24,000 bases of DNA from an uncultured Oscillospiraceae bacterium (GTDB lineage: Bacteria > Bacillota > Clostridia > Oscillospirales > SIG519). The notes beneath the pieces were generated by a model, which did no database searches, was not told where the DNA came from, and saw only the letters and a list, made by a program, of their open reading frames with translations. A program made the translations under genes and the position numbers. The stretch spans positions 6,194 to 30,193 of the forward strand of contig CAZFQD010000007.1 in NCBI GenBank assembly GCA_964520885.1, in the 5' to 3' direction. The number at the start of each line of letters is the position of its first letter. Within the stretch, counting starts at the first letter, position 1. Below, in pieces: positions 5,085 through 14,295 of this stretch.

Positions 5085-5642
5085 TTATTCAATTATTTCA
5101 TTTAACTTATTATCTTCAATAGTATAATATAAAGGTATAATATTAATATTCGGATACATAATTGATAATCTTCTAGATTCACTTAAAACAAACTGTGCTT
5201 CATTTTCTATTTCAAAAATGGGAGCATACTTTAAAAAATGTTCTAAAGCATTATTCTTATCCCACCCAGCATTTTCAACTAAGCCATTAACAAATTGTTC
5301 TTTTTTTGATATCAAATTAACCATACCACATTCATTATGAGCAATTAAAGCTATATATTTAATATTTCCAACAGCAATACAATATGAAAGTTTAAATTCA
5401 CTATTTCTTATATTTGCTCCACCTGTTCTTAAAATATAAGCAAAATTTTCAGGTAATCTTAACTGTTTTCTATTATCCATACACATTCCCACTAAAATTT
5501 GAGCATTATCATATTTAATAAACTCTTTTTTGAAGTTTTGATATTTTATTAAAGTTTCTATTGGAGTATTAATAAACTTAATGTTAATATCTTCTTCACA
5601 AAGTATTTTTTTTATTTTCATATTTATAATCTTCTCTTTCAT
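5085..5642 (-). CDS. Beta-class carbonic anhydrase-like protein (putative)
   Basis: 185-aa ORF. It has a CxDxR motif (CMDNR) and, about 50 residues later, an HxxC motif (AHNECG). These are the zinc ligands and Asp-Arg dyad of beta-carbonic anhydrases. The start could instead be the second Met (M8), because neither ATG has a strong Shine-Dalgarno sequence. Confidence 0.5.
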   Translation of the reverse strand: MKEKIINMKIKKILCEEDINIKFINTPIETLIKYQNFKKEFIKYDNAQILVGMCMDNRKQLRLPENFAYILRTGGANIRNSEFKLSYCIAVGNIKYIALIAHNECGMVNLISKKEQFVNGLVENAGWDKNNALEHFLKYAPIFEIENEAQFVLSESRRLSIMYPNINIIPLYYTIEDNKLNEIIE

Positions 5643-5768: not shown

Positions 5769-5805
5769 TAAAAAAGCAGGTAAATATTTAAATAATACTT
5801 ACCTG
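5769..5805 (-). terminator. Rho-independent terminator downstream of the GGDEF/HD-GYP gene
   Basis: The minus-strand RNA reads CAGGUAAGUAUU-AUUUA-AAUAUUUACCUG, a 12-bp stem with one G-U pair spanning 5777-5805. CUUUUUAU follows it. The structure begins 14 nt after the stop codon at 5819. Confidence 0.7.
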
Positions 5806-5818
5806 TTTAAAGATATAT

Positions 5819-7492
5819 TTATTTGCTATTGTTAAGTGCTTCTATAAATTGCTTAGCTAAGATTGGGTCAAAATGCTTACCACTACATTCTCGGATTTCT
5901 ACAAAGGCTTCCTTGTGAGTTAATTTTTCTTTATAAGGTCTATTATTTGTCATAGCATCGAAACTATCAACTAAGGTTAAAATTCTTGCCAAATAGTTTA
6001 TTTCTTCACCTTTAACCCCGTTCGGGTAACCACTTCCATCATATTTTTCATGGTGTTGTAATACAATATCAACTACATCTTCTAAACCCTCAATAGAACG
6101 AATAATATTTGCACTATCAATTGGATGCTTTTTAAGTTCTTCCCACTCTTCAGAACTTAACTTTTTATCTGAGATTAATATTTCCTTGGAAATATTAATC
6201 TTACCAATATCATGTAAATATGCCCCATACAATAAGTTCTTTTTTTGTTCATCACCCAGTCTAAGATACTTAGCAAATATCTCACAAAAATAAACAACCC
6301 TTTCGGTATGATTATATGTATATCTATCTCGCGAGTTGATTAAAGTAATTAAAGTTTTCATTGATTTAACGCTTTGGTCAGCAGTATCCTTAGAATTCTC
6401 AAGATGAATAAATTTATCAAATAATGAAACATAGGTTTCAACTCTGTTTTTTCTAAAATATTTTGCTCTATAAAGAGCCGCATCTGCTCTATTGATTACA
6501 TTAATATTGCTGTCTTTTTCATCATAAAGCATTGAAATTCCAATGGAAACAGTTACTTTTCTATTTGGCATATGCTCTCTACCATAAAATTCATAATTGG
6601 CAATAAGTTTTCTTAAATTATCGGATAATATTACAGCTTCATTTTGCGACATATTTGGAAGTATGACTGAAAATTCTTCTCCACCATATCTACACACAAT
6701 TTGCTCTTTACTTACATTATCTCTAATAATATTTGCAATTATTTTTAAAACTTCGTCACCCTGCTGATGACCATATAAATCATTATAATTTTTAAAATAA
6801 TCAATATCAACCATAAGCAATGAAATTGGGCATTTTTTTTCAATGCTTTCCTCGCATTTTAGTTTAAACACCTCTTGAAAATATCGGTGATTAAATACTT
6901 CAGTTAATCCATCAAGATTTGCATACTCTTTAAGGTCAGCAATATGCTGTTTTTCAATTTTTACATAATATCCCATTATCCAAGCTACAACTATAAACAT
7001 AGCCGAAAGAGCTAAATCTGTTTGAAAATATTGATTAACATCAACTCCTTTATAAAAGAATAAATCTATTCCTATTATCGTAAAAGACGATGCAACTGCA
7101 ATAGACACACCAACCTTTATACCAAATTCAATAGAATAAGAAACTATCATAAAAATAAATAAAAATTTATAATAACTTTGATAACTTCCACTTAAAAATA
7201 TAGAAAAAACACAAACAGAATAAAAAACCAATATTTCTATAAATAATATTAGTTTTAATTTTTTTCTATTATAATCCATTATTAACCACAAAAATGTTAA
7301 GGCAACCAAAATAATAAGCATTGTAATAAATGCTCTACTGTTAACTCCGTAAAATGTTGTAGTTGTTTGACCACTAAAGATTTTCTTAAATAAAGGGGTT
7401 GCACAAAAAAACAGAGCAAGGATTTTCAAGGAGAAAAACATTGTTCGATATTGATTTTGTTTTACTTCATCAAATTCCTTCAAGCACTTCAC
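5819..7492 (-). CDS. Membrane-anchored bifunctional c-di-GMP protein: about 6 TM N-terminal domain, GGDEF diguanylate cyclase domain and HD-GYP phosphodiesterase domain
   Basis: 557-aa ORF. The first ~180 aa are strongly hydrophobic with about 6 predicted helices. An intact GGEEF motif (RYGGEEFSVILP) has upstream DIDYFKNYNDLYGHQQGD. The C-terminal HD-GYP signature is HDIGK ... HHEKYDGSGYP. The track start is GTG at 7492 with only a weak GGGA upstream, so the start is uncertain. Confidence 0.9.
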   Translation of the reverse strand: MKCLKEFDEVKQNQYRTMFFSLKILALFFCATPLFKKIFSGQTTTTFYGVNSRAFITMLIILVALTFLWLIMDYNRKKLKLILFIEILVFYSVCVFSIFLSGSYQSYYKFLFIFMIVSYSIEFGIKVGVSIAVASSFTIIGIDLFFYKGVDVNQYFQTDLALSAMFIVVAWIMGYYVKIEKQHIADLKEYANLDGLTEVFNHRYFQEVFKLKCEESIEKKCPISLLMVDIDYFKNYNDLYGHQQGDEVLKIIANIIRDNVSKEQIVCRYGGEEFSVILPNMSQNEAVILSDNLRKLIANYEFYGREHMPNRKVTVSIGISMLYDEKDSNINVINRADAALYRAKYFRKNRVETYVSLFDKFIHLENSKDTADQSVKSMKTLITLINSRDRYTYNHTERVVYFCEIFAKYLRLGDEQKKNLLYGAYLHDIGKINISKEILISDKKLSSEEWEELKKHPIDSANIIRSIEGLEDVVDIVLQHHEKYDGSGYPNGVKGEEINYLARILTLVDSFDAMTNNRPYKEKLTHKEAFVEIRECSGKHFDPILAKQFIEALNNSK

Positions 7493-7567
7493 TATCCCAA
7501 AAAAATTTTTTTTTGTCTTTTTAATTTTTGTCTTGAAATCTATATAAATTATTTTTATTTTTGAATT

Positions 7568-7599
7568 TAGAGAACCTATAAATTAATATAGGTTCTCTA
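7568..7599 (-). terminator. Perfect 13-bp inverted repeat (TAGAGAACCTATA-N6-TATAGGTTCTCTA) 9 nt after the agrD stop; putative transcript-end or stabiliser hairpin, or an operator
   Basis: Read directly: 7568-7580 is the exact reverse complement of 7587-7599, with a 6-nt loop AATTAA. No U-tract follows on the minus-strand RNA (an A-rich tract follows instead), so it is not a canonical intrinsic terminator. Confidence 0.45.
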
Positions 7600-7607
7600 T
7601 AGCTACA

Positions 7608-7736
7608 TTACATATCGCTTAAGCACTTTGGCTCCTCAGGTTGATAAACAAACCAAAGGCAAGCTGAGGTTGCAACCACTGTTGCAAAAAATGTAGCAAT
7701 TACAGAAATAACAGCAAATAAAACATTTTTATTCAT
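7608..7736 (-). CDS. agrD: AgrD-type cyclic lactone/thiolactone autoinducer peptide precursor (42 aa)
   Basis: Inner ATG of the 76-aa track ORF, preceded by a strong AGGAGG 5 nt upstream (plus strand CCTCCT, 7742-7747). The product is MNKNVLFAVISVIATFFATVVATSACLWFVYQPEEPKCLSDM. It has an amphipathic N-terminal leader, a central Cys, and the conserved acidic C-terminal tail QPEEPK typical of clostridial AgrD. It lies 70 nt downstream of agrB. Confidence 0.85.
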   Translation of the reverse strand: MNKNVLFAVISVIATFFATVVATSACLWFVYQPEEPKCLSDM

Positions 7737-7806
7737 TAAAATATCCTCCTTCCCAAAATACTGTATTAAAACCAATTCTAACGAATTAGTGTTAAGCAAA
7801 TTAAAT

Positions 7807-8436
7807 TTACCTGAACTTTGAATCAATGGTTCCAACAATTATATGCCCTGTTTTTGTTAAAGTAAAAGCTTGCCAAAGTGTTGCAAAGCATAGGCAAATA
7901 GAAATATCAATAATAACATTTGATTTTGAAAAACAAACTAATATTTCTGCTATAATAAAGTAAATAAATAAGGTTAAAAATGTATTTCTTCTAAGTTTAA
8001 AAATCTTTTCTTTTTTTGTTATAGGCTTATTAGGTGAATCTACTGGGACTAATTGGTAAGCAACTATAAAACAAAAAGCAAATATAAGAAATATTAATGG
8101 AAACAGTATGTATATATTTACTTTAAATGAAATAGGAATTAAATATGTAGCAATAAATGCCATAAATGAAATAGAAATAATACTTATTATCAAACAGCCC
8201 AACATTGTTTGGCTATGTGCTCCTCCGGTGGATTTCCTAAGTAATCCAACTGCTAAAAATATAACCATACTTTCAACCCAAAAGCCTGCAAAAAAACCAA
8301 TAATTGATGAAACAATAAAAATACTTACTATTTGAAAAATTGCTATTAACCCATATTCTATAACAGCTTTTTTATCTTGGTCATAATTTAACTTAGTTGC
8401 AATAATTACAGCAATACTATGAGCTAATTTCTCCAT
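7807..8436 (-). CDS. agrB: AgrB family accessory gene regulator protein (AgrD-processing membrane endopeptidase)
   Basis: 209-aa multipass membrane ORF. It contains LLRKSTGGAHSQTMLGC, so the His and Cys are 7 residues apart, as for the catalytic H77/C84 pair of S. aureus AgrB. AAGGAG lies 8 nt upstream of the ATG. The start overlaps the upstream ORF by 20 nt. Confidence 0.85.
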   Translation of the reverse strand: MEKLAHSIAVIIATKLNYDQDKKAVIEYGLIAIFQIVSIFIVSSIIGFFAGFWVESMVIFLAVGLLRKSTGGAHSQTMLGCLIISIISISFMAFIATYLIPISFKVNIYILFPLIFLIFAFCFIVAYQLVPVDSPNKPITKKEKIFKLRRNTFLTLFIYFIIAEILVCFSKSNVIIDISICLCFATLWQAFTLTKTGHIIVGTIDSKFR

Positions 8437-8911
8437 TATTGTTCTCCTTGTTATCTGGCTTAGTATTTAATTTATAAATAAAAAGTACTGCAAACAAAAA
8501 TAAAATATTTGCTGGTATTCCTGCTATTGACCAATTAAGTTCATTTTTTGAAAACTCCGTAATATTTTCAAATCCAATTACTAAGCCTAAGAATACTCCA
8601 TTTAATATCTCTGTTAATAATATAATAACGCCAACAATTAGAACTGATAAAACTGTTTTGTAAATTGGTGTTTTAAGTAATGTAATTCCTAAAATAATTA
8701 ATACTATTAAAATAAACAAGGTATGAACTCCAAATTCAATTGGCAATAATCTTATAATAATTGCAGATGCAAAAAATATAATAGTTACCAATGAAAACAA
8801 CTTTATCTCAATTTTTTTCTTGCAAATAGCACAAACTGCCAAAACACATATGATACTTTGCAAAAGATATACCATAATATACTTTGCTAAAATAATTTGT
8901 AAAATTTCCAT
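8417..8911 (-). CDS. Hypothetical multipass membrane protein (about 5 TM), apparently translationally coupled to agrB
   Basis: 164-aa ORF that is almost entirely hydrophobic helices, with a short polar C-terminal tail (KPDNKENNNGEISS). I recognise no catalytic motif. Its 3' end overlaps the agrB start. Confidence 0.6.
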   Translation of the reverse strand: MEILQIILAKYIMVYLLQSIICVLAVCAICKKKIEIKLFSLVTIIFFASAIIIRLLPIEFGVHTLFILIVLIILGITLLKTPIYKTVLSVLIVGVIILLTEILNGVFLGLVIGFENITEFSKNELNWSIAGIPANILFLFAVLFIYKLNTKPDNKENNNGEISS

Positions 8912-8927
8912 TTAACTTCCTCCATCA

Positions 8928-9491
8928 TTAATTTTTTTTATCCATAAAAGCTTTTTTTATACTTATAGCTTTAATAGTGAAATAAACTATAACAAAAATA
9001 AAAGAATGAATTAATACATCGCCAATACTCAAAATACTAAAGCCAACATCAATATAATCTGTTAAATAAACTAATTTAGTATTTTCGTTTACTAATATAT
9101 GTAGTGCATCGCTACCTTTTTCAATAGCACCCACTTTATAGTAACCGGTTAACTTAGATAGAGTTGGATAAATTGGCATCTTACCATCATTAAAAAATAT
9201 AACAATTTTATTTAGTATGGTTCCGAGAAAAACCAAACCAGAACCAGCAATAGCGGGAACATAAAGCTTATACAATAATATCGGGAGAATTAAGACATAC
9301 ATATATGCACTTTTAATATAACCAGCATACTGCAAAAAATAATAATTGCCCATAAAAGTATTAACTTGAAAGAAAATATATGTCGCCTCAACTAAAAACA
9401 AGGGGTATAGAGAAAAAGTTTTAAATGCAAGGAGTAATTTATAACCTTTAATTTTTGCTAAAATAAAAGCAAATAATATTGAAATAATCAT
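8928..9491 (-). CDS. Hypothetical multipass membrane protein, reminiscent of the DUF5317 family
   Basis: 187-aa hydrophobic ORF with two conserved-looking polar patches, FFNDGKMPIYP and SILSIGDVLIH. From memory, DUF5317 proteins are about 180-200 aa Firmicute membrane proteins with similar NGGxMP and SxGD patches. I have not verified this assignment. It is the first gene of the apparent operon. Confidence 0.55.
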   Translation of the reverse strand: MIISILFAFILAKIKGYKLLLAFKTFSLYPLFLVEATYIFFQVNTFMGNYYFLQYAGYIKSAYMYVLILPILLYKLYVPAIAGSGLVFLGTILNKIVIFFNDGKMPIYPTLSKLTGYYKVGAIEKGSDALHILVNENTKLVYLTDYIDVGFSILSIGDVLIHSFIFVIVYFTIKAISIKKAFMDKKN

Positions 9492-9546
9492 ATTTTCTCC
9501 ACAAAAAAAAATTAATGCTAAAAAATATTAATATTTATTTTTTGTT

Positions 9547-9575
9547 ATTATAACATTATAATTAATATAAAGCAA
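9547..9575 (-). promoter_or_regulatory. Candidate sigma-A promoter for the membrane-protein/agrBD operon
   Basis: On the minus strand: TTGCTT (-35; plus strand 9570-9575), a 17-nt spacer, then TATAAT (-10; plus strand 9547-9552). This would leave a 5' UTR of roughly 50 nt before the ATG at 9491. The background is very AT-rich, so chance matches are common. Confidence 0.3.
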
Positions 9576-9643
9576 TAGTTTTTTGAAAAATTTGTCAACT
9601 TCATCAATTTCATTATAAATAGTTTTAATGCTTTTAGCAACTT

Positions 9644-13709: not shown

Positions 13710-14027
13710 TTACAAAAGCCACTCGTAATTTTGCCTGCAATCTAAAATATAATCTATAAATACTGTATCTTTTTTAATCTGATAAATAAGTAAATACCGC
13801 TTTGATACAAGTGCTTTACGATATTTTTTTATTGGTAATGCTGTATCATATAAATAACTGAATCTTTCAGGCATTGTTTGTAAACTTTTTGCACTTAAAA
13901 TTATTTCCTTTCTCAATTCGTCAGCAACTTTAATACTAACCTGTGCTAAAAATCTAATATGAGACACAAGCATTTCGGAAGCTACATCAGAAATTATAAC
14001 TTTATATTCGTTGGTTTTTTTGTCCAT
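13710..14027 (-). CDS. Type II toxin, RelE/ParE superfamily
   Basis: 105-aa ORF whose start overlaps the upstream antitoxin gene by 26 nt, with GGAGG 7 nt upstream of the ATG. The size, basic character and the pattern ...FSYLYD...YRKALVSKRYLLIYQIKKDTVFIDYILDCRQ fit ParE/RelE-like toxins. Confidence 0.75.
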   Translation of the reverse strand: MDKKTNEYKVIISDVASEMLVSHIRFLAQVSIKVADELRKEIILSAKSLQTMPERFSYLYDTALPIKKYRKALVSKRYLLIYQIKKDTVFIDYILDCRQNYEWLL

Positions 14028-14295
14028 TATTAACCTCCGAAATTACATTCTTTAGCATAGTGTCAAGTTGGGGAATTGTATTGCCAACTTTTCCCGCAAT
14101 TCTATCCTCCTCGGCTAAAATTAAATTCTCTCTAAGTTTTAGCATTGTTTCACGACGAGAAAAGGCTACAATATCCATTACAACCAAATCTCCCTCACCG
14201 TTTTTTGTTAAATAAATCGGTTCGCCTGTTATTTTACACAAATTAGAAATCTCATTGTAATTATTACGAATTGATGCTGATGGCTTAATATTCAT
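14002..14295 (-). CDS. Type II antitoxin, Phd/YefM family
   Basis: 97-aa ORF. The N-terminus MNIKPSASIRNNYNEISNLCKITGEPIYLTKNGEGDLVVMDI is the classic Phd/YefM fold signature. It is the first gene of a two-gene overlapping cassette. Confidence 0.8.
   Translation of the reverse strand: MNIKPSASIRNNYNEISNLCKITGEPIYLTKNGEGDLVVMDIVAFSRRETMLKLRENLILAEEDRIAGKVGNTIPQLDTMLKNVISEVNNGQKNQRI

Follow-up and report, generated by a model that had tools for sequence, protein, structure and literature searches.

The DNA considered here is a 24,000-nucleotide stretch (positions 6,194 to 30,193 of contig CAZFQD010000007.1, assembly GCA_964520885.1) from an uncultured Oscillospiraceae bacterium, called the window below, and the subject is a cassette of five co-oriented genes on its minus strand in which the pheromone genes agrB and agrD are followed by the gene of a predicted membrane-bound enzyme of cyclic diguanylate (c-di-GMP) turnover. 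The window DNA is identical to metagenome contig ENA ERZ27248965 k141_791618, and the organism is a low-GC (~29%) member of the Clostridia. In gene order, the cassette encodes a DUF5317 membrane protein, a membrane protein of 164 amino acids (p164), AgrB, AgrD, and a protein with six transmembrane (6-TM) helices ahead of a GGDEF and an HD-GYP domain (Table 1). The genes of DUF5317 and p164 are 16 nt apart, that of p164 overlaps agrB by 20 nt, agrB and agrD are separated by 70 nt, and agrD and the enzyme gene by 115 nt. A first-pass annotation, made from the letters alone, had described this gene set with its strands, spacings and a hairpin behind agrD, and each of these details was reproduced when open reading frames (ORFs), domains and folds were checked. 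It had also remarked that AgrC and AgrA are absent from the whole 24 kb, and this was borne out, as domain searches of all ORFs of at least 100 aa in the window found no histidine kinase, REC or LytTR domain. Because AgrC and AgrA are lacking, the locus falls outside the canonical agrBDCA definition.

Table 1. Features of the cassette and its flanking signals (positions in the window)
Feature	Position	Strand	Basis or remark
Sigma-70-like promoter candidate, TTGCTA-17-TATAAT	9612..9640	-	5' of DUF5317 gene; consensus scan, 10/12 matches
DUF5317 membrane protein, 187 aa	8928..9491	-	Pfam PF17248, 3.6e-25
p164, polytopic membrane protein, 164 aa	8417..8911	-	no family match
agrB, AgrD-processing membrane protease, 209 aa	7807..8436	-	Pfam PF04647, 5.7e-34; 20-nt overlap with p164 gene
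agrD, pheromone precursor, 42 aa from its ATG, MNKNVLFAVISVIATFFATVVATSACLWFVYQPEEPKCLSDM	7608..7736	-	TIGR04223, 2.8e-12
Codons of predicted thiolactone ring C26-L-W-F-V30	7647..7661	-	analogy with C. perfringens autoinducing peptide CLWFT (PMC12312760)
Perfect 13-bp hairpin, 6-nt loop	7568..7599	-	starts 8 nt past agrD stop codon
6TM-GGDEF-HD-GYP gene, 557 aa	5819..7492	-	ORF and Pfam
N-terminal 6-TM domain, residues 1 to ~180	6953..7492	-	AlphaFold model and alignments
GGDEF domain, residues 191-349, RYGGEEF at 268-274	6446..6922	-	Pfam, 1.3e-43
HD-GYP domain, residues 380-543; H427-D428, HHEKYDGSGYP at 480-490	5864..6355	-	Pfam HD_5, 1.7e-38
Terminator-like hairpin, 12-bp stem then T run CTTTTTTATG	5777..5805	-	terminator scan; 3' of enzyme gene

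The enzyme and its linkage to agrBD

The 557-aa protein has more than 4,400 relatives, the best 120 of which are full length (coverage mostly 96-100%, identity 48-99%), and its N-terminal domain is therefore conserved alongside the enzyme domains. In an alignment of 23 homologues, the residues R268, Y269, G270, G271, E273 and F274 of the cyclase site RYGG[DE]EF are invariant, as are H427, D428, H480, H481, E482, G488, Y489 and P490 of the HD-GYP domain, which makes it plausible that both activities are intact. An RxxD inhibitory site is common in diguanylate cyclases and not obligatory. It lies five residues upstream of the active site and is replaced by SKEQ in the window protein (residues 261-270, 6683-6712 on the minus strand); it was found in 12 of the 23 aligned sequences. 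As this site is missing here and in roughly half of the aligned relatives, lineages may differ in their feedback inhibition by c-di-GMP.

The first-pass annotation had estimated about six TM helices, in agreement with the AlphaFold model of residues 1-195, which shows six helices (predicted local distance difference test score 88, predicted template modelling score 0.81), the last of which continues as a long helix up to the start of the GGDEF domain. From the even number of helices and a basic loop at residues 75-79, three loops are predicted to lie at the outer face and the enzyme domains inside the cell. Outer loop 1 (residues about 40-51) is variable and modelled with lower confidence, and the two other outer loops are conserved across the alignments as SGxxxSYYKF and VNxYFQxD.

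With only the TM domain as query, a word-indexed search gave nothing, and relatives were gathered by an exhaustive HMMER search with the same query, in which 125 cluster representatives were found to have this domain. Their outputs include GGDEF in 57 (24 of them also with HD-GYP, many others being fragments) and HisKA/HATPase kinase in 23, often with PAS. In addition, P0230, a representative from the metagenome clusters, has a domain homologous to this one (hhalign probability 98%) fused to a GHKL kinase of AgrC/LytS type (HATPase_c_5, 8e-25), and this kinase is, by its domain match, a third output type for the sensor. The domain thus appears, from its distribution over proteins, to be a portable membrane sensor reused on c-di-GMP enzymes and kinases. 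Similar behaviour is known for PilS-type 6TM and MASE-type domains, which are likewise six-helix membrane domains found on both kinases and c-di-GMP enzymes. Pfam 6TM_PilS (PF25323) was matched by 9 of the 125 relatives, at best with 28.8 bits against a cut-off of 27, the window protein not being among them; the NCBIfam model 'MASE3_PAS_HK' ('MASE3 domain-containing') matched kinase relatives, with 562 bits against a cut-off of 560; and Pfam MASE3 matched no member, the window protein included. The MASE9-12 domains described for HD-GYP proteins in a published survey, which does not mention agr, are distinct from the TM domain of the window.

The linkage to agrBD was examined from the enzyme side and from the AgrB side. 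When one genome per species was scanned with an alignment of the enzyme family as query, 80 loci were obtained, and these were then searched with the window proteins. In all 22 of those that encode an enzyme with the TM domain and have upstream DNA (L001-L010, L012-L019, L021, L025, L026 and L030), agrB was located immediately upstream on the same strand, and in most of them the order DUF5317, p164, AgrB, AgrD, enzyme was complete. No AgrB match was found at the GGDEF/HD-GYP loci of the same scan that are without this TM domain (L022-L024, L027-L029 and L031-L080). A metagenome scan, seeded with a five-sequence alignment of kinase-type TM domains because a 16-sequence version was too diverse, gave a further 30 loci, and AgrB was upstream in 25/25 of the enzyme-type proteins with upstream DNA. 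Altogether agrB was directly upstream at 47/47 scorable loci (~41 once near-duplicates are removed), at identities down to ~33%. Adjacency to the one or two agrB genes of a genome would be expected by chance in only about 1/1000 genomes, and the association is therefore hardly one of chance. From the other side, the AgrB relatives P0346, P0355 and P0360 (~40% identity) were found in the same five-gene cassette. Conservation of the adjacency in related genomes, on which the first-pass annotation had made its proposal depend, was thus seen in both directions.

The cassette ranges over Clostridium sensu stricto, Lachnospiraceae, Proteiniclasticum, Romboutsia, Thermanaeromonas and many metagenome-assembled genomes (MAGs). 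Carriers include Clostridium tarantellae, C. chromiireducens, C. tepidum, C. estertheticum, C. tagluense, Proteiniclasticum ruminis and Romboutsia maritimum, as well as a Thermanaeromonas MAG and MAGs of Lachnospiraceae and Eubacteriales. The flanking genes differ (hydrogenase and NUDIX; RecQ and TetR; CCA-adding enzyme and SMC in the window), and the unit therefore stays together as it moves. The locus of R. maritimum (L021, 6723-11515), a member of the Peptostreptococcaceae, the family of C. difficile, has a cassette without DUF5317, consisting of p164, AgrB, a 39-aa AgrD (...TLCMCLFYEPEVPESL) and the TM-GGDEF-HD-GYP protein. It directly follows ORFs of 244 and 257 aa that by eye resemble sigma-70-family sigma factors.

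Pheromone, accessory proteins and transcript

The match of AgrB to Pfam PF04647 spans 183 of the 185 profile positions, and AgrD, placed in its own family by TIGR04223, has the amphipathic leader, the thiolactone cysteine and the acidic C-terminal recognition tail of such precursors (...TSAC-LWFV-YQPEEPKCL). The pattern S/T-S-A-C-xxxx-[YH]QPEEP is common to the window AgrD and 50 related AgrDs, in which the two flanks (S/T-S-A-C and [YH]QPEEP) stay constant and the four positions following the cysteine, rich in aromatic residues, are the variable part. The cysteine with these four positions would form the ring of the pheromone, and by analogy the predicted ring of the window peptide is CLWFV.

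Two uncharacterised membrane proteins, DUF5317 and p164, are encoded before agrB. No Pfam, NCBIfam or Protein Data Bank (PDB) relative of p164 was found by sequence, and Pfam scans of 23 homologues gave only noise. Its homologues occur in nearly all cassettes, and also beside histidine-kinase-type sensors without agrBD. The protein has conserved motifs (R-LLPI-x-x-G-V-H-T, E101 and GIPS) and is hypervariable among close relatives. That it might be a paralogue of the TM sensor was rejected, as the hhalign probability was 3%.

In most related loci the cassette begins with DUF5317, for which no PDB relative was found by sequence. The invariant residues of DUF5317 are N101, M105-P106, H131, D145, D148, G150, S155 and G157-D158. 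In Pseudoneobacillus and Alicyclobacillus (L022, 7235-9598; L024, 8836-11206), a homologue lies directly upstream of the gene of a 607-615-aa multi-TM GGDEF/HD-GYP protein, the membrane domain of which differs from that of the window protein, and there is no agrB or agrD at either locus. As it is paired with GGDEF/HD-GYP in these Bacilli without agr, DUF5317 seems to belong with the c-di-GMP enzyme and not with the pheromone genes. One predicted membrane helix of DUF5317 contains S-x-G-D, loosely reminiscent of the GxGD aspartyl proteases, and a role as a GxGD-type protease for the AgrD leader was considered. It was not adopted, as its basis was the conserved Asp and Gly only, and it is weakened by the same pairing in the agr-less Bacilli.

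Sequence divergence within the cassette is unevenly distributed. Over 38 cassettes the mean difference was 62% in the TM domain, 85% in loop 1 and 43% in the enzyme part. Between L084 and L091, with the predicted rings CLWFT and CIWFT, the enzyme part differs by 2%, the TM domain by 12% and loop 1 by 76%; between L015 and L081 (CYWCV and CVWCV) the corresponding values are 9%, 35% and 80%; and between L001 and L002, with identical rings, they are 13%, 15% and 27%. In the first two pairs, near-identical relatives with unlike peptides, the sensor has diverged far more quickly than the enzyme part. When the DNA of L084 and L091 was compared in a sliding window, the background identity was ~94%, falling to 63-82% over the whole p164 gene (L084 6407-7105) and to 60% in the loop-1 codons (8102-8198), and AgrB stayed 91-99% identical. 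This suggests that p164 and the sensor loop diversify together and that p164 partners the sensor. These hot spots resemble the hypervariable specificity region of staphylococcal agr. The co-variation of ring and sensor itself is suggestive only.

The 115-nt spacer between agrD and the enzyme gene folds with z = -3.8, and none of 200 shuffled sequences folded as well. Its hairpin is without a U tract and is not called by the terminator scan; on the coding strand, a terminator with a T run was found by pattern only 3' of the enzyme gene (5805-5777), and this site is the likely end of the transcription unit. A consensus scan found no promoter-like site on the coding strand within the spacer. Such scans give pattern matches only, and the candidate 5' of the DUF5317 gene should be read in the same way, as promoter-like matches across the region are no more numerous than in shuffled sequence. 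In the 50 related loci the spacer is usually 42-130 nt long, and a strong stem-loop of about -12 to -37 kcal/mol lies a few nt past the agrD stop codon in nearly all of them. The hairpin sequences are unrelated among loci, and it is therefore the structure that is conserved rather than the sequence. U-rich tails follow the stems in some loci (L002, L006, L096 and the C. perfringens-type contigs) and are absent in others, including the window. The shortest spacers (42-48 nt in L096, L118, L114 and L007) consist mostly of hairpin, so that a separate promoter with a leader would not fit. This argues for co-transcription of the enzyme gene with agrBD, and the hairpin is probably a leaky terminator or an RNA-stabilising stem within one operon.

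Comparison with studied agr systems

The closest studied counterpart is the Agr-like system of Clostridium perfringens, the published operon of which comprises four genes, CPE1563-CPE1562-agrB-agrD, identical in kind and order to the first four of the window, with CPE1563 and CPE1562 as the positional counterparts of DUF5317 and p164. The suspicion in the first-pass annotation that the four-gene core is conserved rather than new was thus well founded, and by homology the AgrB/AgrD half of the cassette is a typical representative of the C. perfringens-type agr systems. The two AgrDs are nearly identical (...TSACLWFVYQPEEP in the window, ...TSACLWFTHQPEEP in the C. perfringens-type contigs). The published C. 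perfringens ring, CLWFT (PMC12312760), ends in T, whereas that predicted for the window ends in V.

Three of the loci (L084, L085 and L109, on contigs of 0.74-0.87 Mb) encode the 44-aa AgrD MKKLNKNLLTLFAALTTVVATTVATSACLWFTHQPEEPKSLRDE, followed by a 59-nt hairpin spacer and the TM-GGDEF-HD-GYP gene. In C. perfringens strain 13 a 135-bp agrD was reported between CPE1561 and CPE1560. A precursor of 44 aa corresponds to an agrD of 135 bp, the ring is CLWFT and the enzyme gene comes next; CPE1560 would therefore be, by position, the gene of this enzyme. The C. perfringens literature names VirS as the receptor, with VirS/VirR unlinked to agr, as the first-pass annotation had noted for VirS; in the papers searched, the gene at the CPE1560 position figures only as a landmark. 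The published reverse transcription PCR in C. perfringens ended at agrD. Type IV pili of this species were reported to be under c-di-GMP control.

Elsewhere in the clostridia, the receptor of C. difficile AgrD1 was stated to be unknown, with the remark that Agr1 may not need a two-component system, and a 2025 primer on agr gives the clostridial systems simply as agrBD (PMC12312760). C. tepidum (L015, 7735-18623) and contig L081 encode an AgrD1 with ...ACYWCVYQP, the ring residues of which match C. botulinum AIP-1 (PMC12312760), and they contain three modules in tandem. The first is the five-gene arrangement with DUF5317, p150, AgrB1, AgrD1 and TM-GGDEF-HD-GYP; the second has GNAT, p132 and a TM-PAS-kinase; and the third has p155, AgrB2 and AgrD2, directly followed by another TM-PAS-kinase. 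One TM domain is common to all three sensors. Compared with agr-1 and agr-2 of C. botulinum group I and C. sporogenes, the agr-1 module of L015 and L081 corresponds to the five-gene cassette, and of the three modules the window contains just the one with c-di-GMP output. AgrC-like receptors are missing in the C. botulinum group, and the two kinases are candidates for this role.

In agrBDCA of Staphylococcus aureus, AgrB and AgrD are likewise followed by a polytopic sensor gene right after agrD, and in the S. aureus specificity groups the outer region of the sensor is hypervariable among close relatives, as in the cassette. The staphylococcal sensor and regulator are the HPK10 kinase AgrC and the LytTR regulator AgrA, however, whereas the window has neither a kinase nor a response regulator; the outputs are GGDEF and HD-GYP, and two extra membrane proteins are encoded before agrB. 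The position of staphylococcal AgrC is filled in L015 and L081 by the TM domain described here, with c-di-GMP or kinase output.

Proposed signalling role of the cassette

Based on these results, it is moderately probable that the cassette is a complete pheromone circuit in which the 6-TM domain is the receptor and c-di-GMP the output; a readout of the peptide through c-di-GMP turnover, direct or indirect, had been proposed in the first-pass annotation. In such a circuit, AgrB would process AgrD into a secreted thiolactone peptide with the predicted ring CLWFV, and the 6-TM domain of the enzyme, possibly together with p164, would sense this peptide at the outer face. The signal could then travel through the long TM6/cytoplasmic helix and shift the balance between synthesis by GGDEF and hydrolysis by HD-GYP, so that cell density would be turned directly into a level of c-di-GMP with no two-component system. 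If most transcripts ended at the hairpin behind agrD and only some continued into the enzyme gene, the cell would make much pheromone but little of the receptor. What the sequences themselves show is the set of genes, a strictly conserved cassette, a TM domain reused as a module, intact catalytic motifs, and a conserved hairpin in short spacers; we infer that the peptide is the ligand, in which direction the c-di-GMP level would change, and that transcripts read through.

A quorum signal read by a c-di-GMP enzyme without a kinase cascade has a precedent in RpfR of Burkholderia, a GGDEF-EAL protein that binds the fatty-acid quorum signal BDSF directly. RpfR, however, is a cytoplasmic protein of a Gram-negative bacterium that uses a PAS domain for a fatty acid, whereas an extracellular cyclic peptide, a 6-TM domain and GGDEF with HD-GYP are proposed here. 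We know of no case in which a cyclic peptide of a Gram-positive bacterium is read directly by a c-di-GMP enzyme.

A wider proposal, to which we give even chances, is that there is a widespread clostridial receptor family in which a 6-TM peptide sensor is joined to a bifunctional c-di-GMP synthase/hydrolase or to a histidine kinase and p164 is a partner that sets the specificity. The agrBD loci regarded as 'orphan' in C. perfringens, in the C. botulinum group and in many gut and environmental Clostridia would then not be orphans, their linked receptor turning the cyclic peptide signal directly into a level of c-di-GMP.

Several observations weigh against the enzyme being the receptor. A Foldseek search of the PDB with the TM domain found nothing significant. 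Kinase-type proteins with the TM domain have p164 as a neighbour and no agrBD in L086, L100, L101 and L104, and neither of them in L094; because such relatives occur without agrBD, the domain is not tied to agrBD in every context. When ring and sensor distances were compared in a partial Mantel test that controlled for the catalytic domain, the correlation was weak (r = 0.10, p = 0.07), and between L026 and L083 the rings differ and loop 1 hardly does. Termination at the hairpin could also be complete in vivo. Finally, VirS binds the peptide and explains toxin regulation in C. perfringens, so that a second receptor is not required there; further receptors were deemed possible in the same literature.

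VirS, as the demonstrated C. perfringens receptor, and the kinase-borne domains beside p164 also speak for the strongest rival explanation, in which the enzyme is co-regulated with agr without being its receptor, so that the capacity for c-di-GMP turnover would follow agr transcription up and down, the TM domain senses something else, such as the state of the membrane or envelope, p164 or DUF5317, and the peptide is read only by unlinked kinases like VirS or AgrC. The pairs of DUF5317 with TM-GGDEF/HD-GYP proteins in the agr-less Bacilli, by which part of the cassette is independent of agr, fit it as well, and the hot spots in p164 and loop 1 could mean contact between p164 and the sensor, not binding of the peptide. 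This explanation has to be taken seriously, but we regard it as unlikely. It leaves unexplained why the TM domain with GGDEF/HD-GYP was never found without agrBD, and why the same domain stands on a kinase in the position of AgrC behind agrB2-agrD2. Moreover, co-regulation alone seldom keeps gene order so strict across families.

Less probable still is that the enzyme acts upstream of the signal and governs, together with DUF5317 and p164, how the peptide is produced, processed or exported; AgrB could, for instance, be gated by c-di-GMP or by direct contact in the membrane. The module would in that case feed c-di-GMP status into pheromone output and not read the pheromone. The five products, all membrane proteins from one tight unit, would suit such a role. 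To our knowledge, no second protease for the N-terminus of AgrD has been found in clostridia, which counts in its favour. A C. perfringens agrB mutant, furthermore, was not complemented by agrB and agrD alone, and rescue was obtained with a construct that also carried CPE1563 and CPE1562. However, an operon promoter is a simpler reason for that result, and the rescuing construct was without the enzyme gene, so that the peptide can be made there in the absence of the enzyme. In addition, a gene for a sensor with an output that comes after the pheromone gene is in the classical position of a receptor. That the adjacency is meaningless, arising by chance or by hitch-hiking in one lineage, has in its favour only the prior that neighbours need not be related, and it is refuted by the recurrence of the linkage at every scorable locus, in several families, between varied flanks and at low identity, which leaves it a negligible probability.

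If the cassette is indeed a pheromone circuit with c-di-GMP output, a peptide pheromone of Gram-positive bacteria would for the first time be coupled directly to a nucleotide second messenger, and c-di-GMP would be a new class of output for peptide quorum sensing, which would explain agr phenotypes that bypass VirS/VirR. It would also provide a class of ligand for an uncharacterised membrane sensor domain and roles for DUF5317 and p164. The agr systems govern toxins, sporulation and biofilm in clostridial pathogens, and for most clostridial agrBD pairs the receptor is unknown or partly known; here a candidate adjoins agrD in every cassette examined, and the carriers include genetically tractable organisms, e.g., C. 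perfringens. In the searchable literature, nothing but reviews and unrelated work was found that links agr with GGDEF, HD-GYP, diguanylate or c-di-GMP, and figures in subscription papers may already label the neighbouring gene, in which case the adjacency would have been drawn earlier, even if left uninterpreted.

The window's remaining ORFs with a length of 100 aa or more belong, by domain searches, to housekeeping or toxin-antitoxin functions. The housekeeping genes are those of FtsY, SMC, CCA-adding enzyme, PfkB kinase, CobA, TspO, GlnA-III, Amt, P-II, Nth, MgsA, SHMT and RACo. Between the enzyme gene and smc lies an otherwise uncharacterised 185-aa ORF (5085-5642, minus strand), whose only match, to beta-carbonic anhydrase, stays below threshold (18 bits; cut-off 25.7). 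A pair of PhdYeFM antitoxin and ParE toxin genes is located between the glutamine synthetase and Impact_N genes (13710-14295, minus strand).

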